IMG/VR virus record: IMGVR_UViG_3300035670_013237
Location: 120,001 to 152,000 of that record
Direction: 5' to 3' (one strand)
Length of the DNA stretch: 32,000 nucleotides
Source: a virus
Part shown: positions 6,413 to 26,493 of the stretch, piece after piece
Layout of the letters: every line of letters begins with the position of its first letter
Numbering within the stretch: the first letter of the stretch is position 1
Made by a program: the position numbers and the translations under genes
The notes under the pieces: generated by a model
Databases searched by the model: none
What the model saw: only the letters and a program-made list of their open reading frames with translations
Told to the model about the DNA's origin: nothing

Positions 6413-6437
6413 AGAAAAAAACTTTTTTTTCGAAAAC

Positions 6438-6468: not shown

Positions 6469-6510
6469 TAATTCATCCGGTGGGGATGGTCCCCCGCCGC
6501 GGAGGTCGAA

Positions 6511-6759: not shown

Positions 6760-6779
6760 TTCCGAAAAAGTGGGGGGAG

Positions 6780-6810
6780 GGTGCAAACCCTCCCGGCTCC
6801 ATGATATAAC
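6780..6810 (+). promoter_or_regulatory. promoter cassette (6857..7093)
   Basis: A-run, GGTGCAAACC in the loop of stem GGGAGGG/CCCTCCC (6775-6794), 15 nt, TGA-TATAAC. Leader TTCATCCGGTGGGGA. Confidence 0.65.
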
Positions 6811-6856
6811 CAATTCATCCGGTGGGGATGGTGCCCTAACCGGCAACGGAGCGAAA

Positions 6857-7093: not shown

Positions 7094-7109
7094 AAAAGTT
7101 GGGCACGGG

Positions 7110-13566: not shown

Positions 13567-13597
13567 GCTATAACACAAAGGGCCGGCGGTTTGCACC
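13567..13597 (-). promoter_or_regulatory. promoter cassette (13324..13539)
   Basis: The minus strand reads AAAAACTT, GGTGCAAACC in the loop of the 9-bp stem GGCCGGCGG/CCGCCGGCC (13581-13604), 15 nt, TATAGC. Confidence 0.55.
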
Positions 13598-13618
13598 GCC
13601 GGCCCCAAGTTTTTGGGA

Positions 13619-13906
13619 TCATTCGTAGGGGTTGAGGCCTACGGATTCCATGAGGAAGACCCCAGGTTCGATGGCACCGTCCTCGTCCCGCCAGATGAGA
13701 GTGGAGGGGAACTTATTGTCGAAGGCGAGGGAGAGTTCGTGGAGCCGGCTGGTGTCCTTTGCCAGGAGGGCGTGGTATTCTTCGAACCCGGCCTTGAACC
13801 TGGAGATTTGCCCGGCCGTGGCCGCCTTGCAGTCAAAGTCATCGAGCTGGGCGGTATCGGTTTGGGCGGTGAAGGTGCCATCGAAGAAGCAGATGCCGTG
13901 TGCCAT
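13619..13906 (-). CDS. hypothetical protein (95 aa)
   Basis: ATG 13906 inside listed ORF 13619..13966. The leader (13925-13953) and promoter 13957..13987 occupy the rest of the ORF. Confidence 0.65.
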   Translation of the reverse strand: MAHGICFFDGTFTAQTDTAQLDDFDCKAATAGQISRFKAGFEEYHALLAKDTSRLHELSLAFDNKFPSTLIWRDEDGAIEPGVFLMESVGLNPYE

Positions 13907-13956
13907 TGCGGTTACCCCGTTTTTCCGTGGGGAGGTATTCCCCACCGGATGAATTA

Positions 13957-13987
13957 GTTGTACCATAAGGAGCCGGGGGTTTGCACC
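13957..13987 (-). promoter_or_regulatory. promoter cassette (13619..13906)
   Basis: The minus strand reads AAAAAAAGTG, GGTGCAAACC in the loop of GCCGGGGG/CCCCCGGC, 15 nt, TGG-TACAAC, then TAATTCATCCGGTGGGGA. Confidence 0.65.
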
Positions 13988-14002
13988 CCCGGCGCACTTT
14001 TT

Positions 14003-14248
14003 TTAGCGCTCAAGTTGGAATTTGGCACCTTTGGGAAGCTCGATGCCTTTGATCTCGCGGTCAATGATGTGGCCCAACCCGATTTGGTCCAGGACAAATT
14101 TGACGGTCCGCGGACCAACGATGCCGGTGTCGGCTTCCTTGGAGGTAACCTCGTCGCCAAGGTAACCCCAAAAATCGTCGTACTCCTTGGGGGTAAGGCG
14201 GTCCGTGATGGTTTTGATGCTGAGCACATAGGCGGTTTTGGCAGGCAT
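14003..14248 (-). CDS. hypothetical protein, paralogue family B (inverted copy of 6857..7093)
   Basis: The listed ORF reaches 14254. The second ATG (14248) has better spacing to SD AAGGA and aligns with the start of the paralogue. Promoter 14293..14323, leader 14261-14289. Confidence 0.75.
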   Translation of the reverse strand: MPAKTAYVLSIKTITDRLTPKEYDDFWGYLGDEVTSKEADTGIVGPRTVKFVLDQIGLGHIIDREIKGIELPKGAKFQLER

Positions 14249-14292
14249 TTTCATTCCTTACCGGGAGGATCCATTCCCCACCGGATGAATTA

Positions 14293-14323
14293 GTTGTACC
14301 ATAGGTTGGAGATGGTTTGCACC
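14293..14323 (-). promoter_or_regulatory. promoter cassette (14003..14248)
   Basis: The minus strand reads AAAAAAGTTT, GGTGCAAACC, 15 nt, TGG-TACAAC, then TAATTCATCCGGTGGGGAATGGATCCTCCCGG. Confidence 0.65.
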
Positions 14324-14350
14324 GCCGCAACAAACTTTTTTAAAAGATTC

Positions 14351-14998
14351 TTAGCGGCTCCACTCGAACCCGGGCGCAACTGTGCCGAAGGCTTCGTGCA
14401 CCTTGTCCACCGCCTCCGCATCGATGTGCCGGAGGTCCTCAGCGGTCAGCGCCCTGCCGTCCCTGCGGTCGACCAGCATGTGCACAACCGCGGTGGAGTA
14501 CCGCTGCGCGAGCCCGTCGTGGCTCCGCTCTGACAGCACGCTCCAAGTCGACAGAGCCGCCGTCGGGAGCAAGACAGTGTCCTGCCGAGCGTCCAGGATG
14601 AGACAGATGCTGTCGACGAGCGCTCCGTCGTCTCCCACGGTCCTGTTCGCCACGAGGTCCTCGATCAGCTTCTTGGTGACCTTCTTCGACCACGGGTGCT
14701 CGCAGTGCATCGGGGTGCCCCCCGACACAGGACCCAGGCGCCACCGAGCTCGGTTGTAGCGCGTCTCAGGCCCACGCCACTCGACGGGCAGCTGCGGGAG
14801 CGCATTGGTGGCTCTATTGAAGGCAGTGAGACGGGCACTTCTCTGAAGGCCTGAGACCCCATGGGGAGCTAGTTCATCTCGGACACGCATGAGACCCAAC
14901 CATGCCCGCGCGGTCTCCTTCAGTAGTGCCCAGTACTGGGGCTCTCCGCGGAAGTCAAGCCACTTGCCGTCAGGATCGATGTGCTTCGGTCTAGTCAT
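14351..14998 (-). CDS. hypothetical protein (215 aa)
   Basis: Listed ORF with GC-rich third codon positions. The long upstream control region contains a perfect ACTAGT-bearing inverted repeat. No family recognised by eye. Confidence 0.75.
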   Translation of the reverse strand: MTRPKHIDPDGKWLDFRGEPQYWALLKETARAWLGLMRVRDELAPHGVSGLQRSARLTAFNRATNALPQLPVEWRGPETRYNRARWRLGPVSGGTPMHCEHPWSKKVTKKLIEDLVANRTVGDDGALVDSICLILDARQDTVLLPTAALSTWSVLSERSHDGLAQRYSTAVVHMLVDRRDGRALTAEDLRHIDAEAVDKVHEAFGTVAPGFEWSR

Positions 14999-15100
14999 AT
15001 ACTACCTCGGCCTGGGGAGTGCCACTCCCACTCCCGTCCCTCTGCTTCTCTCATGAAGGTAGTCCATCAAGGAGCCCAGAGAAGCTTCAACTCAGCTCAA

Positions 15101-15128
15101 ACTAGTAGTCACCGGAGAGACTACTAGT
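15101..15128. promoter_or_regulatory. perfect inverted repeat ACTAGTAGTC-N8-GACTACTAGT (operator candidate)
   Basis: 10-bp arms at 15101-15110 and 15119-15128, about 100 nt upstream of the start of 14351..14998. A TCTAGT variant lies at 14990-14995, next to the start codon. Confidence 0.55.
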
Positions 15129-15150
15129 ACACCAAGCGGAGGCTCTTAAT

Positions 15151-15184
15151 CACAAAAGAGAGGGTCCAGGCTGGACCTCTCTCG
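15151..15184 (-). terminator. promoter-proximal terminator-like hairpin in the leader of 14351..14998
   Basis: The minus strand reads GAGAGAGGTCCA-GCC-TGGACCCTCTC followed by TTTTGTGA. It is enclosed by a second 10-bp pairing CCAAGCGGAG/CTCCGCTTGG (15134-15143 / 15189-15198). Confidence 0.45.
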
Positions 15185-15201
15185 CTACTCCGCTTGGGCT
15201 T

Positions 15202-15233
15202 ATTATACAAGGATGGGCCCGGGGGTTTGCACC
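15202..15233 (-). promoter_or_regulatory. promoter cassette followed by terminator-like leader (upstream of 14351..14998)
   Basis: On the minus strand, GGTGCAAACC sits in the loop of the 11-bp stem GGGCCCGGGGG/CCCCCGGGCCC (15215-15242). 16 nt, TATAAT. Confidence 0.55.
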
Positions 15234-15252
15234 CCCGGGCCCACGGACCCCG

Positions 15253-15453
15253 TCAAGAGAGGGGGATTATGGTAACCCCCGGTTTCTCCACGAAGAGGCC
15301 CGAGTCCGGCTCCTGGCCCGTGACCGCGAACACATGGTCATGGAGGTCTTCGTCCGGGAGGAAGAGGGCGCCGAAGGGACCGTCCTCCTCGAAGAGGGTG
15401 CCAGTGATGGTTCCGAGCTCGGGATAGTTGGCGTTGGTATAAGCGTAGCGCAT
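15253..15453 (-). CDS. hypothetical protein (66 aa)
   Basis: Listed ORF. Promoter 15503..15533, leader 15471-15499, SD AAGGAAG. Confidence 0.65.
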   Translation of the reverse strand: MRYAYTNANYPELGTITGTLFEEDGPFGALFLPDEDLHDHVFAVTGQEPDSGLFVEKPGVTIIPLS

Positions 15454-15502
15454 TTGCTTTCTTCCTTTTGCCGGGAGGATCCATTCCCCACCGGATGAAC
15501 CA

Positions 15503-15533
15503 GTTGTACCATGGTTGGGCTGGCTTTTGCACC
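15503..15533 (-). promoter_or_regulatory. promoter cassette (15253..15453)
   Basis: The minus strand reads AAAAAAAGTT, GGTGCAAAAG, 15 nt, TGG-TACAAC. The leader is identical to that of 14003..14248. Confidence 0.65.
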
Positions 15534-15580
15534 GCCCCGCGAACTTTTTTTGAGCCCCACCGCGCTGAGGGCAGCGGGCG

Positions 15581-15611
15581 ATTATACAATAGGATCCCGG
15601 GGGTTTGCACC
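15581..15611 (-). promoter_or_regulatory. orphan/tandem promoter cassette (no ORF before the next cassette)
   Basis: On the minus strand, GGTGCAAACC sits in the loop of CCGGGGG/CCCCCGG. 15 nt, TATAAT. Only about 45 nt separate it from the A-run of cassette 15503..15533. Confidence 0.5.
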
Positions 15612-15628
15612 CCCGGTCCCAACATTCC

Positions 15629-15931
15629 TCAACCCCCGATGAAGGCCTTCCCGGCCGGGGTCAAGGTCCAAAGGGTGGCGTTCCCCTTCTTACCCGCAGG
15701 CTGGATGAACCCCCGGATGAAGAGGGATGAGGCCTGGCCGTGGCCCGTTGGTCCGCCGAAGTAATTGGTGGTCAACCGAGGGGCGAAGTAGGATTGGCCC
15801 CAGGTTCGATGGCACACCGGCTTATCCCAGGGGATGACCGGCTTCCGCGCCTCGGCGGAAGTGCACCCGGTCGGGCCGGCGGCGGCGATGGTACGAAGGA
15901 TGGTGAGCGCGGTATTTCCGAGATTGGGCAT
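15629..15931 (-). CDS. possible winged-helix protein (100 aa)
   Basis: Listed ORF. Promoter 15980..16010, leader 15950-15974, SD GGAGGAAG. LTILRTIAAAGPTGCTSAEA...GFIQPAGKKGNATLWTLTPAGKAFI resembles an HTH plus wing. Confidence 0.7.
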   Translation of the reverse strand: MPNLGNTALTILRTIAAAGPTGCTSAEARKPVIPWDKPVCHRTWGQSYFAPRLTTNYFGGPTGHGQASSLFIRGFIQPAGKKGNATLWTLTPAGKAFIGG

Positions 15932-15979
15932 TTGGCTTCCTCCAATTTACCGGGGGGTTCCTCCCCACCGGATGTTTTA

Positions 15980-16010
15980 TTTGTACCATAGGTTGGTTGG
16001 GCTTTGCACC
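15980..16010 (-). promoter_or_regulatory. promoter cassette (15629..15931)
   Basis: The minus strand reads AAAAAAAAGTT, GGTGCAAAGC, 15 nt, TGG-TACAAA, then ACATCCGGTGGGGAGGAACCCCCCGG. Confidence 0.65.
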
Positions 16011-16069
16011 TTTTCCAACTTTTTTTTACCAGGTTGGTTTTTTCCTTTCCATCCCCACCTGATGAATTA

Positions 16070-16100
16070 TTTGTACCATAGGCCATTTTCGTTTTTCACT
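16070..16100 (-). promoter_or_regulatory. orphan promoter cassette with truncated leader
   Basis: The minus strand reads AGTGAAAAAC, 15 nt, TGG-TACAAA, then TAATTCATCAGGTGGGGATGG. It runs straight into the A-run of cassette 15980..16010. Only a 7-codon ORF is present. Confidence 0.45.
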
Positions 16101-16129
16101 AAAATCGAAAATTAGTTTTTTTAAAAAAC

Positions 16130-16160
16130 CGTGTAAAAGGGGCCCCGGCCCCATTATAAT
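16130..16160 (+). promoter_or_regulatory. promoter cassette reading rightward into the ORF-less GGGGCCCC region
   Basis: CGTGTAAAAG, 15 nt (GGGCCCCGGCCCCAT), perfect TATAAT. Divergent from 16070..16100 across 29 nt of A/T. Confidence 0.5.
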
Positions 16161-16250
16161 ACGGGGGCCCCGGGGCCCCCCATTAAGGGCCATTAAATGG
16201 GGCCCCTTAAGCCCCTAAAACCATTGGTTTAAATGGGGGGCCCCGCCCCT
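16140..16250. repeat. array of GGGGCCCC-type palindromes alternating with A/T blocks
   Basis: GGGGCCCCGGCCCC (16139-16152), GGGGGCCCCGGGGCCCCCC (16164-16182), GGGCC (16187-16191), GGGGCCCC (16199-16206), GCCCC (16211-16215), GGGGGGCCCCGCCCC (16235-16249). These are separated by ATTATAATAC, ATTAA, ATTAAAT, TTAA, TAAAACCATTGGTTTAAAT and followed by TAAAAAAGG. No ORF is supported. Confidence 0.6.
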
Positions 16251-16500
16251 AAAAAAGGCAACCTTTGTGGTGCAAAACTGGCGGTGGGGCGCGCTAAGTG
16301 CACTCAAAAATTCTGGAGAAAATTCCGTCACCGTTCACCCCTTGCTCCCGCCCACCTCATGGACTCGTGTCCTCTCGTGTTCCCTCGTCTTCTTAAAAGT
16401 GGGTATGGGGTGGGGGGTGATTCCCGGAGGGCCCCCGGCGTCCCGAAAAATTCTGGAAACATTTTTGGGTTGGAATGGTCCTCGCGGGCGCTCGTTTCCC

Positions 16501-17280
16501 TCAGCCGTCGTAGTGGATCTTGAAGAAGTTACCGATTGCCTCCGGGAGGCGCGCGACGAACGTGCGCCGGCCCTGCGGGTCGAGGGTGTCGAGGAACTGC
16601 TGGTGCGCGGCTTCGAGGCGCGCGAGGAGGCCCGCCTCCCAGCCCTCGGGGCCGTACGCGTAGTCGAGGTAGAAGTCTCCCTCGGGCGCCTCGACGGGCG
16701 TCCCGCCCGTCCGCCGCGCCTTCGCCGAGCGCCGGAGCTGCTCCTTCCACTGTTCCTCCTCGTCGCTCTGGAGGAACGGGAGGTGCACCGCGCAGTCGTC
16801 CTCCGGGGGTGGCGTCGCGGGGTTGTCCACGTCGTCGAGCTTCCACTTGGGGCGGCCCTTGTGGAATTGTGTTTCCCACGCGTCGCGTGCGGCGTCCGAC
16901 ACCGAGAGGCGGTCGGGCATGATGCGGCCGTTGGGGGCGAGGGCGTAGCCCACGCCGTACACGATCTTGCCGATGCCTGGGCCTGCTGACGTTGTGACTT
17001 CCCATGCCCCGTTGCACGGGTGGCGCGTGTCCGCGAGGCGGATGATCCCTCGGATCGCCGTGCGCGCGAGGATTTCCTTGTAAGTTGTTCCGGGGGTGGC
17101 CGGGTCGAGGATGCGGTCCAGGTTGGGCGCGAGGGCCCCTGGGTCGTAGATGACGGCCGCCAGCCGCGACGACAGCGGGCGGGTGACGGCGACGGCGAGG
17201 CCGTCGCCCAGGGATTCGATGAGGAGGCGGCGCGCGACGGCCTCGAAGATGTGGCGGGTGGGTCGGGTGGTGTGGGGCAC
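16501..17280 (-). CDS. hypothetical protein (259 aa), paralogue family E (with 18353..19069)
   Basis: Frame of listed ORF 16501..17445. GTG at 17280 lies 7 nt after SD GGAGGA. Shares PC.GAW....AGPG...VYG..YAL.P.G...PDR.SVS..A..AW...LDD.D.P......DDC...L.RL.AAH with 18353..19069. Confidence 0.7.
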   Translation of the reverse strand: MPHTTRPTRHIFEAVARRLLIESLGDGLAVAVTRPLSSRLAAVIYDPGALAPNLDRILDPATPGTTYKEILARTAIRGIIRLADTRHPCNGAWEVTTSAGPGIGKIVYGVGYALAPNGRIMPDRLSVSDAARDAWETQFHKGRPKWKLDDVDNPATPPPEDDCAVHLPFLQSDEEEQWKEQLRRSAKARRTGGTPVEAPEGDFYLDYAYGPEGWEAGLLARLEAAHQQFLDTLDPQGRRTFVARLPEAIGNFFKIHYDG

Positions 17281-17472
17281 TCTCGTTTCCTCCGGGGGCC
17301 CCCGGGGGCCCCCCGCAAAATGGGGTGTGGATTTCCTTGCCGAATTTTCAAGTTTTTTCTCGCGCCCCCTGGGGCGCTCTTCTCTAAGTATCTTGGCGTG
17401 GGCGCGGAGCACAGAATCCCACGAATTAATCGCGGCCGCGCGCATACTGCTGCCCAGCAGAGGAGACGCGAC

Positions 17473-18327
17473 ATGGTTGCAAGGATTGACTCAATTGGGC
17501 TATACGAGGTGCGAGGCGGGGGGCCGAACCTGATCGTCGAGGGTGACGTGCTGTCGAGCAACATCGGGGCGCTGTCGTCCTCGTTCGCGGCCCTCGAGGG
17601 CCGCGCGGTGGCGTACGATTCCATTTGTCCCACTGGGGATGGCGTCCCGCTCTCGACAGGGGAGACGGCCTTCGCGTCGACGCTGACCCTGCCCGCGAGC
17701 TCGAGCGTGGGCGACGCCCTCGAGATCTATGCGTTCGTCGAGTGCCCAGAGCCGCCCCCGCAGGGCGGCCTCGTGCAGGATGGGTCCGTCGCCGCCCCGG
17801 GGACCGGGTATTTACCCGGGGACCAGGTGACGATCTTGGGCGGGGATGGCGGGGCGGTCGTGACTTTTACAGACGAGTTTACACCCCTTGAAGTTGTCAA
17901 TCCTGGGTCGAATTACACGGAGGGTGTGTACGACGTCAGTGGGGGTGCGGGCGAGGGCATGCAGGTCTATATTACAGCAAGCGGCATCAGCATACCCACA
18001 TTTGTGCCGAAGGTGTACATTGGCACCGCCGCGGAGCCCCTCTTGTGGCACATCACACCAGGAATTTCAAGCGTGGGTGCCTATCCCGACGGCGTCAACA
18101 GGTATTACATCAGGTGCACGGCTTTCCTGAAGCCAGGCGAGGGGTCCTACGAGATCTTTGGCGGTGCCTACGCGGTCTCCAGCGCGAACATCAAGTGCAA
18201 TGCTTCATTTTCGTATGCGGGTTCCCCCACCTTGCCCCTCATCCTCACGGTGACGTCCACGAGCAGCGCCGCGGACCCGACCGAGGCACTATTGAAGCTC
18301 CTCGCCTATCGGGTCACGCCTGCGTGA
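17473..18327 (+). CDS. hypothetical Gly/Ser/Thr/Val-rich, probably beta-rich protein (284 aa)
   Basis: ATG 17473 inside listed ORF 17020..18327. SD AGGAGA 6 nt upstream. The upstream part of the ORF is antisense to 16501..17280. Confidence 0.7.
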   Translation: MVARIDSIGLYEVRGGGPNLIVEGDVLSSNIGALSSSFAALEGRAVAYDSICPTGDGVPLSTGETAFASTLTLPASSSVGDALEIYAFVECPEPPPQGGLVQDGSVAAPGTGYLPGDQVTILGGDGGAVVTFTDEFTPLEVVNPGSNYTEGVYDVSGGAGEGMQVYITASGISIPTFVPKVYIGTAAEPLLWHITPGISSVGAYPDGVNRYYIRCTAFLKPGEGSYEIFGGAYAVSSANIKCNASFSYAGSPTLPLILTVTSTSSAADPTEALLKLLAYRVTPA

Positions 18328-18352: not shown

Positions 18353-19069
18353 ATGATCAAGTATCACGCACCAGGATATTTAGAGTTCATGAAGAATGAG
18401 ACGTTGGCCGAGCGGGTGTACAGGCGGTTGCTCCGTGAGGGATCAGGGGCTATTGATGACGGCATGGCCGTGTGCGTCACAAGCACACCGGGCGTGCGGG
18501 CTACAGCCACGGTGTATCGGGCGGAGGAGACCTTAGAGCGATGGCGCGATGTTGCTGGCTTTGATGGCTCATGCATTGTCGGTTGGGTGAACCTGTGGAA
18601 GCCCACGGGCGCACCTTGCCGGGGCGCCTGGATGATCGCGGGCATCGCAGGTCCTGGTCGACTTGTTTATGGATTGGCGTATGCCTTGTCCCCGACCGGA
18701 TTGGTTGTGCCTGATCGGACCAGCGTGTCGACCTCGGCGAGGGCTGCGTGGCGGGGGTATGCCGCGAAGGCTGCGGCTCGCGGCGCCATGTATCCTCTTG
18801 ATGACGCCGATCATCCACCAAAAGGCCAGAGCGTCCATCACGACGCGTACCACACTGAGGACCCGAACGACGATTGTTACACGTCGCACAGTGAGGACTT
18901 CCTTAACGCTGCGTATGAGGGCCATGGTGACGAGGGTGCAGTGTTGAAGCGTCTGCAGGCCGCGCACCGTGCCGTGTTGGCCCAGATTCCGGAAGGGCTT
19001 CGGCACAAGTTCGAGGAAGAGGTTCAGGACGCAGGCTACTTCTGGGCCGACCCGCAGATCGACAACTGA
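18353..19069 (+). CDS. hypothetical protein (238 aa), paralogue family E
   Basis: Listed ORF. Aligns with 16501..17280 over most of its length. Confidence 0.75.
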   Translation: MIKYHAPGYLEFMKNETLAERVYRRLLREGSGAIDDGMAVCVTSTPGVRATATVYRAEETLERWRDVAGFDGSCIVGWVNLWKPTGAPCRGAWMIAGIAGPGRLVYGLAYALSPTGLVVPDRTSVSTSARAAWRGYAAKAAARGAMYPLDDADHPPKGQSVHHDAYHTEDPNDDCYTSHSEDFLNAAYEGHGDEGAVLKRLQAAHRAVLAQIPEGLRHKFEEEVQDAGYFWADPQIDN

Positions 19070-19109: not shown

Positions 19110-19706
19110 ATGAAGTTCTCACGGCAGGTATGCAGCGCTCTTACAGCCTTCTTTCTCGGGGCGCCCGTCCAGGCGTCCGAGCCATTCCCGCTATCTCTAG
19201 GAATCGGAGCAGGGGTGGGAGTGAACAAGCACTTCCATCCCGAAGTTTCTCGCGAGGATGTGGCGTTTATTAACGTAGCGTGCGTGCGTCTTAAGTTCCT
19301 GTGGATTTTTGGTGTTGATTATTCGTATGACATGTCCCGGGATGCGGAGCTGCAGACCCACCCTGAGGAGGGCGACCTGCATTATCGGGCGAAGTTACGG
19401 CTGAGCGGGCTGTTGTATCCTCTTCCATTGGGGCATTTTAATTTTTATTTTATAGGTGGCACTGGTGCAGCGCACCTGAGCGAGGCGTTTTTGATTGCAG
19501 CGCCGGGGGAGAGTTATCATGGTGGAATTGGATTTGAGGTGTTTTTCGACGACCATGTCGCCCTCGATTTGAGCTTCGTTTTGGTCGCGCCCGGCGTGCA
19601 CACAGCAGCCGAGAGGGCTCTTCACGCTGGAGAGATTCCACGGCTTAATTCTCTTTTTGGCCTGAAGAACCATGAGTTTGTCCTGCGGTTTTTGTTTTTT
19701 TTGTGA
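19110..19706 (+). CDS. outer-membrane beta-barrel protein with signal peptide (198 aa)
   Basis: ATG 19110 inside listed ORF 18969..19706. Signal peptide MKFSRQVCSALTAFFLGAPVQA/SEP. Alternating hydrophobic beta-strand pattern and an aromatic C-terminus (RFLFFL). The ATG is 7 nt after the -10 of promoter 19072..19102, so it is leaderless. Confidence 0.7.
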   Translation: MKFSRQVCSALTAFFLGAPVQASEPFPLSLGIGAGVGVNKHFHPEVSREDVAFINVACVRLKFLWIFGVDYSYDMSRDAELQTHPEEGDLHYRAKLRLSGLLYPLPLGHFNFYFIGGTGAAHLSEAFLIAAPGESYHGGIGFEVFFDDHVALDLSFVLVAPGVHTAAERALHAGEIPRLNSLFGLKNHEFVLRFLFFL

Positions 19707-19709
19707 TTT

Positions 19710-19740
19710 GGTGTAAACTCCAGATGGGTTGGGTTATAAT
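19710..19740 (+). promoter_or_regulatory. promoter cassette (19828..20664) with structured 87-nt leader
   Basis: GGTGTAAACT, 15 nt, TATAAT. The leader has nested hairpins (ACCCCCAA...TTGGGGGT enclosing AGGGT-N8-ACCCT; GGCCAA-GAAA-TTGGCC). Confidence 0.6.
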
Positions 19741-19827
19741 TGAACCCCCAAAATATGAGGGTGAATATTTACCCTTCCCGATTGGGGGTGCGGCCAAGAA
19801 ATTGGCCTCTTGACAAGAAGGTAAAAG

Positions 19828-20664
19828 ATGAAATCAAAGTATCATATGGTTGAGAAGCGCAGCAGAGATCTGGGTGATGTGCCGACGGGGTATGAGATGT
19901 TGGCAATTTTCACGATTTGGCTCGTTGCGATGTTTGGTTTGGCGATGTCGACCGGGTGCGATGGCGAAGCCCGCGCCGAGCTCCGTGATCCGCCAGTGAT
20001 TCTCAATAAGATTGAGCGTGACCGGGTGCCCTCGCCGAGGTCTCCGAAGCTGCATGTTCGGCAGAAGCCCGTTGATCCAGAGACTGTGATGTGTTTCTCT
20101 CCAGAGGGTCCGGCGCCTGATCGCACTGGTGTTCTCTTACAGGATCCGCCCACCGAAGAGGAGAGGCGGATGATTGATGTGCAGCTTGACCACTGCAAGC
20201 GCGACATTCGTGGTGTGGCTGATCCATTTCTTATGTTGGCAGTCCTACGGTTCGAGGAGGAGATTGGCGTGCCTGATGAGGCTCGTGGAATCTTGGGTGC
20301 TGTGTGGTGCATTGAAGCCTCCATGATGCTAAAAGGGCGCGATGGTGGTCCAATTCGTGGTGATTGGCACGGCAGTCATGCCAACGCTCATGGCCCAGCC
20401 CAGTTGTGGTCATGGCATCGTAATTGGTGTGGGTTGTCTGAGGGCGGTGCTGATGATCTTTACACGGCACTTGGGTGTTACTGGAAGCGTGCTGGGGATC
20501 GTCGTGAGAAGCGGGCGATGGGTTGCATTGACACGTGGCGTGTAGGTGAGGCACTAGCAGCGAATGGTGTGAAGTACAGGCCCCATGGGTGCAAGGCACA
20601 GTCATCTCACTGGAAAGAGATGAAAAAGTGGCACCGCATTTTAGACACTTCAGCAGGTGGCTAA
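19828..20664 (+). CDS. possible lytic transglycosylase (SLT-like) with N-terminal membrane or lipoprotein anchor
   Basis: Listed ORF. Hydrophobic LAIFTIWLVAMFGLAMSTGC. WCIEASM...AHGPAQLW resembles the E-S...G(L/P)xQ catalytic motifs of SLT domains. The assignment is tentative. Confidence 0.6.
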   Translation: MKSKYHMVEKRSRDLGDVPTGYEMLAIFTIWLVAMFGLAMSTGCDGEARAELRDPPVILNKIERDRVPSPRSPKLHVRQKPVDPETVMCFSPEGPAPDRTGVLLQDPPTEEERRMIDVQLDHCKRDIRGVADPFLMLAVLRFEEEIGVPDEARGILGAVWCIEASMMLKGRDGGPIRGDWHGSHANAHGPAQLWSWHRNWCGLSEGGADDLYTALGCYWKRAGDRREKRAMGCIDTWRVGEALAANGVKYRPHGCKAQSSHWKEMKKWHRILDTSAGG

Positions 20665-20676
20665 TATTTTAGACGT

Positions 20677-21018
20677 ATGAGTGAAATGTCACTGGACCCT
20701 GAAATGCAACGTTTGGCTCAAGAGGCCATAAAGTGTAAAAAATGGCGGTGGATTCCAGGCATGGCTTGGACTTCACCAGGAGGAGCATGCGGGCGGGTCG
20801 TATTAGATTGGATACCTGATAAATTTTCTTATCCTGTCCTCTCTGACCCAGCCACACTAGGTTGTCTCCTGCACATTGTACGCGAGGCATGGGGACAGCC
20901 TAGTCTCGGCTGCCATAAGTTGTTTGATAGTAGTTGGGTTGTTACGCACTGCAGCCCGACAATTGGTGGCTCCTCTGAAGCTGCCGCATTGATAGCAGCA
21001 CTTGCTCAAAAAAACTGA
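20677..21018 (+). CDS. hypothetical protein, paralogue family D (WRWxPGM / DPATxGC)
   Basis: Listed ORF. Motifs KKWRWIPGM and LSDPATLGCLLHIVREAWG are shared with 21792, 23734 and 25116. Confidence 0.7.
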   Translation: MSEMSLDPEMQRLAQEAIKCKKWRWIPGMAWTSPGGACGRVVLDWIPDKFSYPVLSDPATLGCLLHIVREAWGQPSLGCHKLFDSSWVVTHCSPTIGGSSEAAALIAALAQKN

Positions 21019-21110
21019 ATCTTTATTATAAATTTGTGCATGTGTATGATAACCTTGTCTTGCCCCGCAGTGGGGCAAGAGCTTTCCTTGAAGATTTATT
21101 GAGGGAGTTT

Positions 21111-21302
21111 ATGTCTGCAAAAAGAATAGTTCAGCAAGCGTTCCATAAGTACGATGCTCTATCAGTCTCTCAAGTCGCCAGTGGTCCTGACTGGGATTCT
21201 TTCATACCCCTGGAACGACATGAGAAGATCATCGCATACCGCGATTTGATTCGTGGTGATGTTCACATTCGCTATCAGGTGGAGCAGCTCCACCGCCGCT
21301 GA
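21111..21302 (+). CDS. hypothetical protein (63 aa)
   Basis: ATG 21111 inside listed ORF 21036..21302. SD GAGGGAG 4 nt upstream. An 8-bp hairpin (21059-21079) lies inside the longer ORF. Confidence 0.55.
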   Translation: MSAKRIVQQAFHKYDALSVSQVASGPDWDSFIPLERHEKIIAYRDLIRGDVHIRYQVEQLHRR

Positions 21303-21359
21303 GATTCGAAAATTTTAATGAGAGCTTGAGTTGTCTAAATAAAGGAAGTGGTTTTTGAC

Positions 21360-21608
21360 ATGAAGAAGTGGAGATTGGTTGTTATTCACTCGGACGGTTC
21401 TACATATGACACAGACCTTGAGGACTGTACGGTTGCTATTCTCAATAGTGACGGAATTAGGGAGCTCGATGATACAGGCGACGCAAAGTGCCTTGATGAA
21501 GAGCATTTTGTGTCTTCCATGAGCGCTTATGACATGGCTGTTGATGCAGGTCTCGTTGAGCTTGCTGAAGAATATGCTGAAGAAGATGATGAAGAGGACG
21601 ACGAGTGA
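21360..21608 (+). CDS. acidic hypothetical protein (82 aa)
   Basis: ATG 21360 inside the listed ORF, which starts at GTG 21348. SD AAGGAAG upstream. The C-terminus is EEYAEEDDEEDDE. Confidence 0.6.
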   Translation: MKKWRLVVIHSDGSTYDTDLEDCTVAILNSDGIRELDDTGDAKCLDEEHFVSSMSAYDMAVDAGLVELAEEYAEEDDEEDDE

Positions 21609-21802
21609 GAGATAAACGACTCTTACGTAATGCATGCCGGTGTACAAAGTGTGACACTATCATCGAGAGCCGCCATCGCCATGACTTTCAATGGTGTAAA
21701 TGCCAATCTGTCTTCGTAGATGGCGGTCTCGACTACATACGTCGCGGAGGAGAGCCACAGTACATGGAAGATCTATCAGTCTACAGCGAGGATGGCAGCT
21801 AA
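21605..21802 (+). CDS. small Cys-rich zinc-ribbon-like protein (65 aa)
   Basis: Listed ORF. GTGA overlap with the upstream stop. CRCTKC...HRHDFQWCKC...VDGGLDYIRRGG is a four-Cys pattern. Confidence 0.6.
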   Translation: MRDKRLLRNACRCTKCDTIIESRHRHDFQWCKCQSVFVDGGLDYIRRGGEPQYMEDLSVYSEDGS

Positions 21803-22139
21803 CGTGGATGAACTCTCGCCCAGAGAATCTCTGGCACGGCGTGCCATTTTGTGTCCGAGTTGGCGCTGGTTGTCAGGTATGAGGGTAATTTATAGTACGG
21901 AGCGTGACGTAGGTGATCGCTTCATTACCATGGATGATGAATATGTCTATCTTGTGGCAGACGATCTCGGGATCAATCGGCCTACAGAGATCGTGGCTGT
22001 GAAGAAGAGATTGGATAAATTCCATAGAGACTGCCTGCCTGATCTTGAGGACCCTGCGACATTTGGGTGTTTAGCACACATGCTGGGTTGTGCACAAAAT
22101 ACAGAAGATTTGGTAAAAATTCTTGAAGCGGCAAGATAG
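21792..22139 (+). CDS. hypothetical protein, paralogue family D
   Basis: ATG 21792 inside listed ORF 21720..22139. Motifs SWRWLSGM and LEDPATFGCLAHML. Confidence 0.65.
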   Translation: MAANVDELSPRESLARRAILCPSWRWLSGMRVIYSTERDVGDRFITMDDEYVYLVADDLGINRPTEIVAVKKRLDKFHRDCLPDLEDPATFGCLAHMLGCAQNTEDLVKILEAAR

Positions 22140-22148
22140 ATAATAAGC

Positions 22149-22559
22149 ATGAAAATCACACTCTCACAGCTCAAAAGAATTATTAAAGAAGAGGCCTCAC
22201 GCGTCAACGAGGCCCTCACCCCGCCTAAAAAGGCTGATCGTGAATTTAGATTGAAGCTAATCAACGCCCTAGAAAGTGTTGCTGAGGAAAATAAAAATGC
22301 GGGTTACCCTATTACAATGAACATAAAGAGGCTGCAATACGAGCTTGGTAAGCACGGAATTTCGCTAGAAAACTCGCGCACTGATTATGTGTCCTTGAGC
22401 AATCCTGAAGATCGTGCTGACGCCCAGAAATATTTTCTTCCGGTTGTGAACGAGCCTGAAGAGGGACAGGAGCCTGCTGACGCTTTCGGCGCCGTGAGTG
22501 ATTTTGTCGCCAGTGTCGACCATCGTAGGTGGGAACAGAACAAAAAGTACGGAGTCTAA
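22149..22559 (+). CDS. hypothetical protein with N-terminal MKITLSQLKRIIKEE motif
   Basis: Listed ORF, followed by terminator 22583..22614. Confidence 0.7.
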   Translation: MKITLSQLKRIIKEEASRVNEALTPPKKADREFRLKLINALESVAEENKNAGYPITMNIKRLQYELGKHGISLENSRTDYVSLSNPEDRADAQKYFLPVVNEPEEGQEPADAFGAVSDFVASVDHRRWEQNKKYGV

Positions 22560-22582
22560 ACCCCGAGAGTTCGCCTGTGAGA

Positions 22583-22614
22583 ATGAAGGCCACCGCAAGG
22601 TGGCCTTCATCTTT
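22583..22614 (+). terminator. rho-independent terminator after 22149..22559
   Basis: 12-bp perfect stem ATGAAGGCCACC/GGTGGCCTTCAT, loop GCAA, then CTTT. Confidence 0.7.
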
Positions 22615-22648
22615 AACTCCGTAGGCTTGCGATTTTTTTTGATGAATT

Positions 22649-22679
22649 GGTGTAAAACTCCTGTGGGCTGTGGTACACT
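22649..22679 (+). promoter_or_regulatory. promoter cassette (22767..23405)
   Basis: A T-run then GGTGTAAAAC, 15 nt, TGG-TACACT. It lies just after terminator 22583..22614. Confidence 0.6.
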
Positions 22680-22766
22680 ACATTCAAGAAGAGCGGAGGG
22701 TGGTTCCTCGGCTCGAATAGAAATGCCCGGTAGCCAATCCGGAATGCACACGGAGAATTAGAGAAA

Positions 22767-23405
22767 ATGTCTGATGCTATTGATAATGCCAAGCTTTCTA
22801 AAATTGATGCAGCCATCGCCGCGGCCAAGGCTCGCAAGGCTGCACGTGAGGCTCAAGAGTCCGAAGAGGGCACATCCTCGAGCCAGGAAAACTCGGTGAA
22901 GAAGGTCAAGTTGAGTGCCGAAGAGCGCGCAAAGAAGAAGGAGGCGATCCTTGTCGAGCGTGCAGCTCGTAAGGCCGCACAGCTCGTCGAGCGCGAAGCA
23001 AAGCGTGCTGCTAAGGCTTCGGCAGGTGAAAAACCCACCCGCATATCGAAGGTCGATCGAGCAGGTGCGAAGCTTCCCCGGCTCCTTGATACTGCTCAGG
23101 CGATCTTTGAAGATATCACCGTCAACCTGGGCGCGGAGCAGCTCGCCGCCTTGGCACAACACATCCTTCACCACAACAGGGTAAAGTCAACGGAGCGGGC
23201 ACAGGGCGCGAAGCTTGAAGTGGGCCAGCGAGTTCGCATTACTGGTGGCGATCCCAAGTGGTATGGGGTGCATGGGACCCTCTCCAAAGTTCAGCGAATC
23301 CGCTGCTTCGTGGAAGTTCCGGGTGCCAACAAGCCGGTTTACCTCTTCACTTCGGACGTGGAGCCCATCGCTGACGACGTCCCCCGCACCGGCACCGAGG
23401 GGTAA
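22767..23405 (+). CDS. Lys/Ala/Glu-rich protein with C-terminal KOW/SH3-like segment (212 aa)
   Basis: Listed ORF. Promoter 22649..22679 with a leader of about 85 nt. Followed by long-stem terminator 23415..23491. Confidence 0.7.
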   Translation: MSDAIDNAKLSKIDAAIAAAKARKAAREAQESEEGTSSSQENSVKKVKLSAEERAKKKEAILVERAARKAAQLVEREAKRAAKASAGEKPTRISKVDRAGAKLPRLLDTAQAIFEDITVNLGAEQLAALAQHILHHNRVKSTERAQGAKLEVGQRVRITGGDPKWYGVHGTLSKVQRIRCFVEVPGANKPVYLFTSDVEPIADDVPRTGTEG

Positions 23406-23414
23406 CCCTCGTCC

Positions 23415-23491
23415 ACTTCTCTGGGAAGAGACCACCAGCGACATGTCATAAGCACGGAGGTCCTGTGGTTCTCTTCCCAGAGAAGCTTTTT
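23415..23491 (+). terminator. long-stem terminator after 22767..23405
   Basis: 20-bp arms CTTCTCTGGGAAGAGACCAC / GTGGT(T)CTCTTCCCAGAGAAG with a 30-nt loop, then CTTTTT. Confidence 0.6.
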
Positions 23492-23498
23492 ACAAAAT

Positions 23499-23528
23499 AG
23501 TGTAAATCTTCTCAAAACCGGTTATATT
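23499..23528 (+). promoter_or_regulatory. promoter cassette (23612..24786 unit)
   Basis: AGTGTAAATC, 14 nt, TATATT. It lies just after terminator 23415..23491. Confidence 0.5.
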
Positions 23529-23611
23529 CAGCGGACCATCTAACGGTGGAAGGGTTCTCTGGCGGGTCGCCGAGGTATCCTAACACCTCGTATTATCAAG
23601 AGAGAAAACAC

Positions 23612-23734
23612 ATGAATCCGTATCATAACGATAGCAAGCTCGTCTCCAAGGTTGATGATTTCTTCAGCAGTTTTTTTCTGTTCTCTTTTCTTGGCGCGTT
23701 CGTAGCAGCGTTTGCCGTGCCGTGGATTGCCTGA
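23612..23734 (+). CDS. small membrane peptide (40 aa)
   Basis: ATG 23612 inside listed ORF 23546..23734, downstream of promoter 23499..23528. Hydrophobic tail FFSSFFLFSFLGAFVAAFAVPWIA. Confidence 0.45.
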   Translation: MNPYHNDSKLVSKVDDFFSSFFLFSFLGAFVAAFAVPWIA

Positions 23735-24108
23735 TGAGTATCAACTCTCGAGACCTGGGCATCAGGATCGCAAACAACAAGTTCTTTCGGCCCACACCAG
23801 GCATGCTCCTTGTCGCTGACAACGGTTGGGCAGGTCGGGTTATCTCTGACGATCCAGTCTATGTTGGTTGTCGGCGAGCTCTGGTGATGGGGAATCCTCA
23901 ATCGGGAGACGGGATGCCCTACGTGCAGGGTCTACAGGACATGAAGGTATATCCAGATGTCACTGACCCTGCGACGGTGGGATGCATTCAAGCGTTGATC
24001 AAAACGGCGGAAGCGAAATATAATAATCCAGACCTCAACACCAAGGCACAAATGTACGATCTGCTGGACTTGGTGAAGCTGTCGGAGGTCTGGGAGAAAG
24101 ATTCGTAA
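23734..24108 (+). CDS. hypothetical protein, paralogue family D
   Basis: ATG 23734 overlaps the upstream TGA (TGATG). The listed ORF begins at GTG 23722. Motifs RPTPGM and VTDPATVGCIQALI. Confidence 0.65.
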   Translation: MSINSRDLGIRIANNKFFRPTPGMLLVADNGWAGRVISDDPVYVGCRRALVMGNPQSGDGMPYVQGLQDMKVYPDVTDPATVGCIQALIKTAEAKYNNPDLNTKAQMYDLLDLVKLSEVWEKDS

Positions 24109-24464
24109 TGTTGTATTGGGAAATTCTCACGGGAAAGTTCAACATCTCTCGTGAATCAGGGCAGCAGGGCGCAGGGCGTGCCCTGCGCTCCTGGTATCTC
24201 AGAAAATATGGTGCCGAAGTTTCTAACTTTAGAGTAAAGCTAAAAGATGGTGTTCCTGTCGAGGTCCACTTAGGGCTGGAAGTTCCTATTCAAGACCTAC
24301 ACACAACTGTCGAACACCTAGAATCAGGTCAGGTTTCAGACCTTGAGGGCGCAAGTTTGCGCTACATTGAAGAGCTCATCGACATGAAGCACATCACAAG
24401 CTGGTCGCTACACCGTCACCCTCTCATGTCTGATAGAGCAGCACTAAATTTTGTCTTGAGCTGA
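24108..24464 (+). CDS. hypothetical protein (118 aa)
   Basis: Listed ORF. TAATG overlap with the upstream stop. Confidence 0.6.
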   Translation: MLYWEILTGKFNISRESGQQGAGRALRSWYLRKYGAEVSNFRVKLKDGVPVEVHLGLEVPIQDLHTTVEHLESGQVSDLEGASLRYIEELIDMKHITSWSLHRHPLMSDRAALNFVLS

Positions 24465-24471
24465 GGAGATT

Positions 24472-24786
24472 ATGGATCCCAGAGAATTGGCACGCAAGGC
24501 AGGTTTTTCAGAGCAGCAGGCTGAAGCATGGGTTTCAGGTTTTGAGCACGGATATATCGAGCGCTCTCGCCTCCAAGAGACTGTCAACTTGCTCTTATCA
24601 CATGGGCAAAAAGACCAAGAGCGCTGGCGCTCCGCAGGCCTCACGTATTCAGCGGTGCGCGAGCTCATTTCTGCTTACGAGCTCGATGAGATCAGTTTTG
24701 GGAAACTTGTGGAAGAAATTCGTGGAATGGCCTCAGGAGAGGTCACACGGCAGCTTAGAGAATTTTCTAAAAAAGAAGAGGAGTAA
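24472..24786 (+). CDS. hypothetical protein (104 aa)
   Basis: Listed ORF. SD GAGGAG 5 nt upstream. Confidence 0.65.
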   Translation: MDPRELARKAGFSEQQAEAWVSGFEHGYIERSRLQETVNLLLSHGQKDQERWRSAGLTYSAVRELISAYELDEISFGKLVEEIRGMASGEVTRQLREFSKKEEE

Positions 24787-24788
24787 TT

Positions 24789-24956
24789 ATGAATTTTGGA
24801 ATTGTTGAAATTTCTTTTGGAATCGGAGTGGCGGCTCTTGTGGTCGGAGCGTACCTCTTGGGATATGTGCATGGTGATAATGCACGTGACCGCCAGTTGT
24901 GGGCCTCACTCAAGAATATCAAGCCCCTTGCGGAAGATGAGGATGTCAAATCTTGA
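24789..24956 (+). CDS. small membrane protein (55 aa), holin-like candidate
   Basis: Too short for the ORF track. The ATG is 2 nt after the upstream stop. One TM helix (GIVEISFGIGVAALVVGAYLLGYV) followed by a charged tail. Confidence 0.5.
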   Translation: MNFGIVEISFGIGVAALVVGAYLLGYVHGDNARDRQLWASLKNIKPLAEDEDVKS

Positions 24957-25153
24957 ATTTGACGTCGAACATCGAGCTCATCATCCTGCTCTACATTGCC
25001 ACTTTCTTTTTTCTAGGTGTGATTTTCGCAGCTGGCATGGCAATCGGGTATAAAATGCGCGGTCGTGAGCTGCGGTACATAAAAAAATATTATCAAAAAA
25101 ATCTGGATAAAGAAGATGTCCGTAGCTCTAGCAGCACAAGCAGTCAAAGCTAA
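24953..25153 (+). CDS. small membrane protein (66 aa), holin/antiholin- or i-spanin-like candidate
   Basis: Listed ORF with a TTG start overlapping the upstream stop (TTGA). One TM helix (IELIILLYIATFFFLGVIFAAGMAIGY) and a basic tail. Confidence 0.5.
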   Translation: MNLTSNIELIILLYIATFFFLGVIFAAGMAIGYKMRGRELRYIKKYYQKNLDKEDVRSSSSTSSQS

Positions 25154-25442
25154 ATATTGGAGGTGGATGCCGGGTATGTTAGCATGTCTTCATGGTAAAT
25201 CTTTTAGAGTTTCGTTTGGGGGTGTGCCTTCTGGAGCAATTCCTGACCTTGATGATGAGACCACATTAAATTGTATTTTGCACTTGGTAAGGGTTATGCG
25301 AAGTGACCACGGCTGGGAACCCCGAGCACTCTATCATGACCCTGAACCTGACTGGGTCGTTGATCCTCCAACATCTATGCGACAGACTCTACATCCTAGC
25401 TACACTTCAGCACTTATCGCAGCACTTTGCAGTTTCAAATAA
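25116..25442 (+). CDS. hypothetical protein, paralogue family D
   Basis: Listed ORF. Motifs KYWRWMPGM and PDLDDETTLNCILHLVRVM. Confidence 0.65.
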   Translation: MSVALAAQAVKAKYWRWMPGMLACLHGKSFRVSFGGVPSGAIPDLDDETTLNCILHLVRVMRSDHGWEPRALYHDPEPDWVVDPPTSMRQTLHPSYTSALIAALCSFK

Positions 25443-25487
25443 TCGTCTAAGTCTAAAACGGGTACCTATCTAGGTGTAGGAGTTAAT

Positions 25488-26204
25488 ATGGACAATTTAT
25501 TGAAAAAAGCTGGTGAGTTGGCGTTAGAGCGCGCGCTGGTCGAGTGGAAGCGTGATGTGGTTGATCCTCCGCGTCGTTCATTGCAGGATCCGTTGTTTGA
25601 TGATGACCGCAAGGCGATCGATGGGTACATTCGGAATGGCGCGCAGTTGGGAGGCGTGTCGAATCCGGGTAAGTTCGTTTATCAGAAGGATGGTGACTAT
25701 GAGTGGTGTGGAGCCTTTCACGCTCACTGTTGGGAACCGTTTATTCAACCCGACCTGAGGCAGTTGTACTGGCCTTCCACGTATCGTCTTGATTGTTATG
25801 GGCGTTATGTTGCCGGGTTTGCGTCTGCAAATGCTAAGGCCACCGCGGCGAAGTATCCTCGACCTGTAGCTGATGGGCGCAAGTACCTGAAGTTGACCGC
25901 GGCGTCGACACCTGAAGAGGTCACGGCGTTTGGCCCACGCCCAGGTGACATTCTGCTGGTGGGCTTTGCGCCAGGTTATGGTTATGGCTCACATGTCACG
26001 CTGGTCGAGCGTTGGGATCCTGCCACACGCATCTTCCACACTGTTGAAGGCAATGCGACAGGCGTTGGTCCCGATGGTTCACGGCGCCAGGGCGTGATCA
26101 AGCACCAGCGCCCGCTTGGGACTGCGACTCCGGCGAAGACGTACCACGCACTGAGGTTAATTCGTCCTGGTATTAACGACCTAATCCCAGGCTCCGTTAA
26201 GTGA
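25488..26204 (+). CDS. NlpC/P60-CHAP-like cell-wall hydrolase (endolysin candidate)
   Basis: Listed ORF with SD TAGGAG. A Cys-His-polar triad in the usual order and context: YEWCGAFHAHCW, GSHVTLVERW, FHTVEGNATG. This resembles the TIGR02594/CHAP families. Confidence 0.7.
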   Translation: MDNLLKKAGELALERALVEWKRDVVDPPRRSLQDPLFDDDRKAIDGYIRNGAQLGGVSNPGKFVYQKDGDYEWCGAFHAHCWEPFIQPDLRQLYWPSTYRLDCYGRYVAGFASANAKATAAKYPRPVADGRKYLKLTAASTPEEVTAFGPRPGDILLVGFAPGYGYGSHVTLVERWDPATRIFHTVEGNATGVGPDGSRRQGVIKHQRPLGTATPAKTYHALRLIRPGINDLIPGSVK

Positions 26205-26470: not shown

Positions 26471-26493
26471 AAATTAGCTGGTGATTTGTGTAT

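Follow-up and report, generated by a model that had tools for sequence, protein, structure and literature searches.

Back-to-back promoters and a predicted terminator outline a possible transcription-control and non-coding RNA locus in a giant phage genome

Introduction

Several phages and prophages make small antisense RNAs, among them lambda OOP RNA, P22 sar and the Bacillus subtilis prophage pairs SR4/bsrG and RatA/txpA, in which a small promoter without a gene of its own converges on the 3′ end of a gene. RNAs of the lambda OOP type do not code for protein and are complementary to the 3′ portion of the mRNA that they target. Here, we describe a locus of similar layout in a 32-kb stretch (32,000 nucleotides (nt), positions 120,001 to 152,000 of the IMG/VR record IMGVR_UViG_3300035670_013237; hereafter, the window, numbered from its first letter) of a large uncultivated phage genome known from metagenomes only. 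The locus occupies the interval 15932–16500 between two minus-strand genes encoding 259 amino acids (aa; 16501–17280) and 100 aa (15629–15931), where an orphan rightward promoter (P+) stands back to back with two leftward promoters (P1 and P2) and converges on the 259-aa gene. It differs from the OOP-type RNAs in having no sequence or Rfam similarity to them, in the length of the putative RNA (approximately 330 nt or longer, versus 77 nt for OOP), in its predicted overlap, which is with a long 3′ untranslated region and not demonstrably with the coding sequence, and in its presumed target, which is a 259-aa protein and not a small toxin or cII.

Two further groups of described systems share features with this interval. 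The lambda OR/OL operators and the stoperators of Cluster A mycobacteriophages consist of several copies of a short sequence lying over a promoter core and start, together with a distant second cluster, while T4 oriF/oriG and ColE1 RNA II combine a promoter with a following G/C-rich, hybrid-capable sequence beside A/T-rich DNA. For giant phages known from metagenomes, annotation is almost exclusively protein-based, and regulatory signals and non-coding RNAs are essentially unknown. We tentatively favour the view that the interval serves a giant phage as a locus of transcription control and non-coding RNA, in which a terminator is combined with a promoter driving a non-coding or antisense RNA.

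Results

Back-to-back promoters of a genome-wide family

When the intergenic regions were listed, a very regular promoter cassette emerged, GTG(C/T)AA-N18-TA(C/T)A(A/C)N, with 26 strict copies in the window against 0.04 expected (64 kb searched). In nearly all cases, a gene on the same strand started 27–50 nt downstream of the cassette. The −10 element was usually preceded by TGG, and a conserved leader (TTCATCCGGTGGGGA...CCCGG) often came next after the cassette, ahead of a ribosome-binding site. There was nearly one cassette per gene (e.g., 4008–4037, 7111–7140, 14293–14322, and 15503–15532), often starting a few bases past the previous stop codon, and metagenome assemblies branched at these cassettes. 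Distant relatives within the phage group carry the same promoter type. A sigma-70 family factor with regions 2 and 3, encoded at 29277–30092, may read one of the promoter classes.

For membership in the family, a looser pattern was applied (−35 GTG(C/T/A)AA, 18-nt spacer, −10 TA(C/T)A(A/C/T)N), and P1, P2, and P+ all matched it; a stock sigma-70 scan did not detect the local promoters. P1, the proximal leftward promoter of the 100-aa gene (15980–16009, minus strand; GTGCAA-N18-TACAAA), was recovered by the family scan and by direct repeat D2. It stands 49 nt upstream of that gene, within the range usual for the family, with the conserved leader CATCCGGTGGGGA..CCCGG and a ribosome-binding site after it. 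P2, the distal leftward promoter (16070–16099, minus strand; GTGAAA-N18-TACAAA), lies 90 nt from P1 and is a tandem duplicate of the P1 cassette, leader included; it stands 139 nt upstream of the gene, outside the 27–50 nt range. P+ (16131–16160, plus strand) consists of GTGTAA (16131–16136), an 18-nt spacer, and TATAAT (16155–16160), with a predicted start at approximately 16166–16168. It has no family leader, the sequence 3′ of its −10 element is very GC-rich, and the next plus-strand gene is 1313 nt away. By position and leader, P+ falls outside the family rule and sorts with a leaderless TATAAT subclass that includes 15202–15232 and 15581–15610.

The two −35 elements are separated by an A/T-rich spacer (16100–16130), which might serve both promoters as an UP element. 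A first-pass annotation, made from the letters of the window, had described this spacer as 29 nt of pure A/T; it is in fact 31 nt long, with 26 A/T positions. The two opposed cassettes of that annotation proved to be real in the sense that both fit the genome's own family, and its rightward start near 16167 agrees with our prediction. Because all three sites are family members, the back-to-back arrangement is backed by the genome's own statistics: P2/P1 and P+ are predicted promoters of one resident family that face away from each other across the 31-nt spacer.

In a near-identical strain (X5), whose genes are 95–98% identical, the promoter region 15945–16140 was 100% identical. In a diverged relative (X12), the loose end of a read, corresponding to AAAAGGGGCCCCCCTCGCTTTATAATAAAA leftward, retained TATAAT and the upstream AAAAGGGGCCCC at the same spacing; the second half of the palindrome block 16139–16152 was altered there. 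Elsewhere in the window, a second orphan family promoter was observed at 6375–6405 (minus strand), facing the plus-strand gene block within the long intergenic region 6094–6510. Another family promoter (11544–11573) lies approximately 115 nt upstream of a tRNA-Lys gene (11689–11764), which thus apparently has a cassette of its own.

A predicted terminator sharing nucleotides with P+

On the minus strand, positions 16139–16179 form a predicted intrinsic terminator hairpin of the 259-aa gene, with arms at 16139–16152 and 16163–16179, a perfect 10-nt inverted repeat (I24), and a folding energy of −33.5 kcal/mol. It is followed directly by the U-tract UUUUACACGGUUUUUU (16138 down to 16123), whose distal U-run, GGUUUUUU, corresponds to 16123–16130, the right part of the A/T-rich spacer. 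The three features that characterise an intrinsic terminator, i.e., a stable GC hairpin, an immediate U-tract, and a position downstream of a gene on the same strand, are all present at 16179–16139 on the minus strand. Canonical intrinsic terminators are used elsewhere in the genome, and the hairpin probably serves as a strong canonical terminator for the 259-aa mRNA. It was missed by a stock terminator scan, which needs five T in eight positions, and by the first-pass annotation, in which the palindromes had not been recognised as a terminator.

The local hairpin resembles other intrinsic terminators in its GC stem of approximately 14–16 bp, its 10-nt loop, its immediate U-tract, and its location downstream of a gene and just upstream of the next promoters, here P2 and P1. 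Unlike them, it shares nucleotides with a promoter of the opposite strand: the P+ −10 element is complementary to its 10-nt loop, and the P+ −35 element to the first part of its U-tract. A further difference is the presence of three more G4C4 blocks without U-tracts.

The TATAAT-subclass promoters 15202–15232 and 15581–15610 likewise have their −35 elements in the loop of a GC hairpin located 3′ of the preceding gene, and this genome appears to merge terminators with promoters habitually. At the former (minus strand), an 11-bp GC hairpin (15215–15242) carries the −35 element in its loop, and approximately 20 nt downstream a terminator-like hairpin (15177–15163) is followed by CUCUCUUUUG; window positions 15163–15242 could represent a small RNA of approximately 50 nt or an attenuator ahead of the gene at 14351–14998. 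One more terminator-like hairpin is found on the plus strand at 17362–17377 (GCGCCCCCTGGGGCGC followed by TCTTCTCT), with no plus-strand gene upstream. It is possibly a stop for a long antisense transcript from P+.

Non-coding status and conservation

The local open reading frames (ORFs) of 96, 55, 44, and 38 aa had log-likelihood scores of −0.06 to −0.26 per codon, compared with at least 0.12 for all real genes and an average of −0.31 for wrong frames, and no Shine-Dalgarno sequence was present at any of them. In the relatives, a C inserted after 16245 cuts the 96-aa ORF (16233–16523) to 21 aa, and a G is inserted after 16476. A search of 1.84 billion representative proteins returned no credible homologue of this ORF. 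By manual codon bookkeeping, six of nine substitution events in the relatives were synonymous in its frame, an excess that we regard as chance or as three-base periodicity shared with the opposite strand. The 96-aa ORF was rejected as a gene on the grounds of codon use, insertions, and lack of homologues. The region 16161–16500 is non-coding, and the first-pass statement that it holds no ORF was borne out.

Diverged relatives were available from freshwater metagenomes at 2–5× coverage, from runs found by word matches to the region itself. In X12, the piece 16163–16295 was 92% identical and the 100-aa gene 83%; in X13, 16199–16276 was 97% identical, with 88 and 85% for the 100-aa and 259-aa genes, respectively. 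The corresponding values were 95% in X11 (16252–16400; 81 and 94% for the two genes), 95% in X14 (16333–16469; 89 and 96% in the 259-aa gene), and 98% in X9 (16422–16571; 97% in the 259-aa gene and 85% at 15374–15441). With pieces of the interval at 92–98% and flanking genes at 81–97%, the interval is therefore constrained at least as much as the surrounding coding sequence. The segment 16199–16245 was identical in two of these diverged relatives, X12 and X13.

Wider searches did not extend this set. An IMG/VR scan with GGGGCCCCGGGGCCCC gave 14 unrelated contigs, and one with a 22-mer from the region gave none. A scan of the Joint Genome Institute (JGI) metagenomes with a 23-mer gave none, although one JGI contig has the sequence. 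Protein-guided searches reached only distant paralogue loci (33–48% identity) without the palindromes, and a comparable long gap after the paralogue in locus L009 had no inverted repeats.

Predicted structure of the plus-strand RNA

The region 16161–16425 folded to −116.3 kcal/mol on the plus strand (z = −3.2) and to −104.9 kcal/mol on the minus strand (z = −1.3). The 5′ stem-loop domain of the putative P+ RNA (16163–16250, plus strand) is built from G4C4 blocks at 16163–16181, 16199–16215, and 16235–16249; within it, a perfect 14-bp stem (16171–16184/16232–16245; I9) encloses a near-palindrome at 16218–16230. A long hairpin specific to the plus-strand RNA lies at 16335–16420, with 14 + 6 bp and five G-U pairs; it folded to −38.2 kcal/mol (z = −3.2), compared with −31.8 kcal/mol (z = −1.7) for its minus-strand counterpart. 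This strand difference arises because the five G-U pairs become A-C mismatches on the other strand. Six substitutions were found in the hairpin among the relatives, two in stems and four in loops. The stem substitutions (G-U to G-C at 16343 and A-U to G-U at 16354) keep pairing on the plus strand only; these wobble-compatible changes are suggestive and do not amount to strict covariation.

Further downstream, a 3′ hairpin (16423–16487, plus strand) contains the second copy of the direct repeat AAAAATTCTGGA (16446–16464) and is followed by CGCUCGUUUCCCUC. The fold of 16420–16500 had a z-score of only −0.45, with a short U-tract; in this model, weak termination at the hairpin could yield an RNA of approximately 330 nt.

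Clustered G4C4 palindromes and a partner at the 259-aa gene

The octamer GGGGCCCC occurs seven times in the window against 1.0 expected, a count reached in none of 100 shuffles. All seven copies fall in two spots, five at 16139–16244 and two at 17295–17312, that bracket the 259-aa gene; the octamer is absent from a further ~6 kb of the same genome. The individual elements listed in the first-pass annotation are all present in the window sequence, including GGGGGCCCCGGGGCCCCCC at 16163–16181, GGGGCCCC at 16199–16206, the near-palindrome AAACCATTGGTTT at 16218–16230, and GGGGGGCCCCGCCCC at 16235–16249. The direct repeat AAAAATTCTGGA has only two exact copies in the window, at 16306 and 16446, and its first copy, extended as AAAAATTCTGGA(G/A)A (16306–16324, plus strand; D6), is unaltered in relative X11.

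What that annotation had overlooked is a partner palindrome at the 5′ end of the 259-aa gene. This element, GGGGGCCCCCGGGGGCCCCCC (17294–17325, minus strand), was identified by inverted repeats I1 (72%) and I2 (89%) and by alignment, and its part at 17294–17312 immediately precedes the ribosome-binding site of the gene. Together, GGGGGCCCCCGGGGGCCCCCC and CCCCATTTTGC make up a 32-nt imperfect inverted copy of 16149–16180. Two imperfect repeat units 36 nt apart (D17 and D18) were also found. Restriction-site avoidance as the origin of the palindromes was ruled out, as GGCC and GGGCCC are not depleted in the window. Repeats of a type III toxin–antitoxin RNA (ToxI-like) were rejected, as no downstream gene lies on the same strand and the next gene is convergent.

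A different palindrome, ACTAGT, is also clustered in the window: 12 copies were found against 3.1 expected, confined to three regulatory clusters (5394–5486, 12950–13018, and 15101–15128), with seven copies within 93 nt just upstream of a gene for an EarA-like winged-helix protein (5582–5905). These ACTAGT clusters probably act as arrays of operators for a phage regulator.

The 259-aa gene and its genomic setting

The 259-aa gene (16501–17280, minus strand), convergent with P+, has a GC content at third codon positions (GC3) of 0.90 and, in its present orientation, no promoter of the family type. It belongs to a multi-copy family typical of these phages, with a second copy in the window (18353–19069) and approximately eight copies in tandem in a related contig (L007, 3524–10438), which also carries genes for SET-domain and eIF-1a-like proteins. 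The motif GAWE..G.GK..Y..A..P..PDR is invariant or nearly so in the family, and the other loci of the family have no such palindromes. The protein had no Pfam or PHROG match, and among PDB sequences there was only a weak match to T7 gp5.5/5.7 (E = 0.012). AlphaFold gave a predicted local distance difference test (pLDDT) score of 37 from the single sequence and 65 from a 12-sequence alignment; the model from the alignment had no fold match.

The source of the window is a giant phage. Copies 100% identical to the window were found in four subsurface runs and two JGI samples, one of the carrying contigs being 0.2–1 Mb long. A DNA-level similarity search against known phages gave no match. The window genes are mostly short and without recognised relatives; those matched to families, inside or just beside the window, encode an AAA_5 ATPase with a DUF2201/VWA protein, the sigma-70 family factor, a DNA ligase, a tail-assembly protein (the latter two just right of the window), and two tRNAs. 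A map of codon-position GC and codon usage divided the window into three gene blocks, on the plus strand at 1–12204, the minus strand at 12338–17280, and the plus strand from 17473. The real genes of the GC-rich island are those at 16501–17280 (minus strand) and 17473–18327 (plus strand); opposite-strand ORFs picked there by one gene caller were rejected as shadows. The first-pass annotation had placed the interval at the junction of the minus-strand block and the GC-rich island. This placement was not upheld: the interval lies between two minus-strand genes and not between divergent ones, the 259-aa gene belongs to both the minus-strand block and the island, and the true divergent gene junction is at 17281–17472. 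GC content is uneven along the window (66–70% in the island at 16501–18300, 55–62% to its left, and 43–52% at 19500–32000 to its right), and GC skew is consistently positive only to the right of approximately 16500.

Discussion

The results are best, if tentatively, explained by a combined terminator and promoter. In this explanation, the G4C4 blocks flanking the P+ −10 element would pair on the minus-strand RNA, and the resulting hairpin and U-tract would end the 259-aa mRNA before P2 and P1. P+ would fire from approximately 16167 into about 330 nt of conserved non-coding sequence, giving a structured RNA with the 5′ G4C4 stem-loop domain, the G-U-containing hairpin at 16335–16420, and the 3′ hairpin. 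Such an RNA would be complementary throughout to the long 3′ untranslated region of the mRNA from the convergent 259-aa gene and, unless stopped near 16490, would run antisense through the 259-aa gene to the hairpins at 17294–17377. Its likely role would be antisense or convergent-transcription control of the 259-aa gene, comparable to that of lambda OOP RNA. More speculatively, GGGGCCCC, which lies over the P+ spacer and start as well as the 5′ end of the 259-aa gene, might also be bound as an operator by a dimeric regulator linking the two. The firing of P+, the functionality of its RNA, and the regulated target are all read from the sequence and remain presumptive. The first-pass annotation had offered a structured non-coding RNA, or an RNA antisense to 16501–17280, as one option; the conservation, the plus-strand-specific fold with G-U pairs, and the wobble-compatible substitutions speak for it.

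Several observations weigh against this explanation. The interval contains no convincing plus-strand terminator, the z-scores of the folds are modest, and the 5′ G4C4 domain, taken by itself, falls short of significance (z = −1.5) and can pair in many other ways. The comparative data amount to a handful of low-coverage reads from similarity-selected runs, with ~13 substitutions and no compensatory double change, and the conservation could equally be explained by a 3′ untranslated region of the 259-aa mRNA. No Rfam 15 family was detected: the best hits in 15900–17500 reached 12–25 bits against thresholds of 34–158, and the window yielded two tRNAs only. None of the RNA-seq runs searched for the sequence contained it. 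In X12, GGGGCCCC is kept while the partner arm of 16139–16152 is changed, which fits recognition of the octamer better than a hairpin.

This last point leads to the possibility that the GGGGCCCC octamers function chiefly at the DNA level, as an array of operators bound by a dimeric regulator of the phage, with any RNA being secondary; the bound regulator would then shut down P+ and the 259-aa gene jointly, perhaps through a loop of the intervening 1.1 kb. On its own, an 8-bp palindrome without a break cannot fold into a hairpin, yet the exact octamer recurs and outlives its partner in X12; a DNA-level operator is therefore a serious rival, one that is compatible with the RNA model and partly overlaps it, although we consider it somewhat unlikely as the main function. 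In its favour, seven perfect copies of one palindrome are present and none elsewhere in ~38 kb, they occupy classical repressor positions (the P+ spacer, the P+ start at +4 to +19, +39, +77, and the 5′ end of the 259-aa gene), the octamer retained in X12 is that of the P+ spacer, and the ACTAGT clusters indicate that clustered palindromic operators seem to be a habit of this genome. However, no candidate binding protein was found, the spacings of the sites (25, 8, 27, and 38 nt) are out of helical phase, one octamer is lost in X13, and the conservation and plus-strand structure of 16260–16490 are left unexplained. Compared with known operators, the local 8-bp pure G4C4 palindrome is shorter and simpler and has no known cognate repressor; stoperators, moreover, are asymmetric and genome-wide, whereas the local sites are confined to the flanks of one gene. 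It is less probable still that the interval is only a terminator and insulator with a long 3′ untranslated region, the P+ match arising incidentally from the U-tract and loop or being an inactive remnant left when the 5′ region of the 259-aa gene was duplicated in inverted orientation. The strong minus-strand hairpin with its U-tract, the typical order of terminator then promoter, and the imperfect inverted copy shared by 16149–16180 and 17294–17325 would all fit. Against this stand the rarity of a strict promoter match by chance (0.04 per 64 kb) together with the exact family spacing of P+, the retention of TATAAT in a relative with a changed stem arm, the three additional G4C4 blocks and 240 conserved nt for which termination has no need, and the preference of both folding and wobble substitutions for the plus strand.

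A more elaborate arrangement, which we regard as quite improbable, is a physical switch in which the inverted G4C4 arms form either the terminator hairpin (or a cruciform) or the P+ −10/−35 elements, with a GGGGCCCC-binding regulator choosing between these states and bridging to the twin palindrome, and with a new class of phage RNA of approximately 330 nt as the output. If true, it would make the locus a self-contained, palindrome-bracketed control unit around one member of a multi-copy gene family. The first-pass annotation had also raised a replication origin, and a transcription-primed form of it can be imagined, in which the P+ transcript forms a G/C-rich R-loop beside the A/T blocks and primes the leading strand as in T4 oriF/oriG or ColE1. 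The promoter is indeed followed by G-rich and C-rich runs alternating with A/T tracts, an A/T-rich 31-mer that could serve for unwinding is at hand, and the cumulative GC skew is flat to approximately 16500 and rises afterwards. Yet this skew change, plotted within 32 kb of a 0.2–1 Mb contig, coincides with a compositionally different gene block and with a change in the sign of the AT skew, so that no usable skew signal remains; no gene for a replication initiator, helicase loader, or primase lies nearby, unlike in the T4 and ColE1 systems, the neighbours being without known function; there are no iterons besides the palindromes; and related phages with the 259-aa family have no such region. 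An origin is very unlikely. Lower still, we would place an invertible or mobile 1.1-kb cassette bounded by 16163–16181 and 17294–17312, whose inversion would put the ribosome-binding site and the 259-aa gene behind P+ as an on/off switch. Inverted repeats of 19–32 nt do bracket exactly one gene, which has no family-type promoter while P+ has no gene, and the GC3 of 0.90 is above that of the neighbours. Nevertheless, five assemblies and the reads of relatives show one orientation at the left junction, with no strand-changing joints (contigs would hide rare forms), the window contains no recombinase gene, and the 259-aa family is resident and multi-copy without such repeats elsewhere. We give equally little credence to a packaging (pac or cos) site or to a small basic protein encoded by the 96-aa ORF. 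For packaging, the sole support comes from the GC-rich palindromes and from two assemblies of a single low-coverage sample whose contigs end at 17302, the only contig ends located inside a palindrome; these ends were rejected as termini, since they appear only at 9× and the two deepest assemblies (X1, 24×; X2, 19×) run through the region. The ~4× assembly X4 is fragmented, with a contig end near 16161. The window and sampled flanks hold no terminase gene, and no recombinase gene is nearby, so the cos/pac proposal of the first-pass annotation is not sustained. Neither an origin nor a packaging site has positive support. As for the protein, the six synonymous events of nine are set against a codon score of −0.06 (at least 0.12 in real genes), the missing ribosome-binding site, frameshifts at codons 5 and 82, and the lack of a homologue.

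The favoured explanation, a terminator merged with a promoter for a non-coding or antisense RNA, gains its interest from the genome itself: against a clear promoter grammar of approximately 26 copies in 32 kb, with one cassette per gene, a single promoter stands without a gene. If the explanation is not confirmed, the interval would be an ordinary terminator and promoter spacer. If it is true, the locus would represent a new phage RNA family and a compact case of a terminator and a promoter sharing nucleotides on opposite strands, and the promoter model could be reused for the annotation of transcription units in this phage group.

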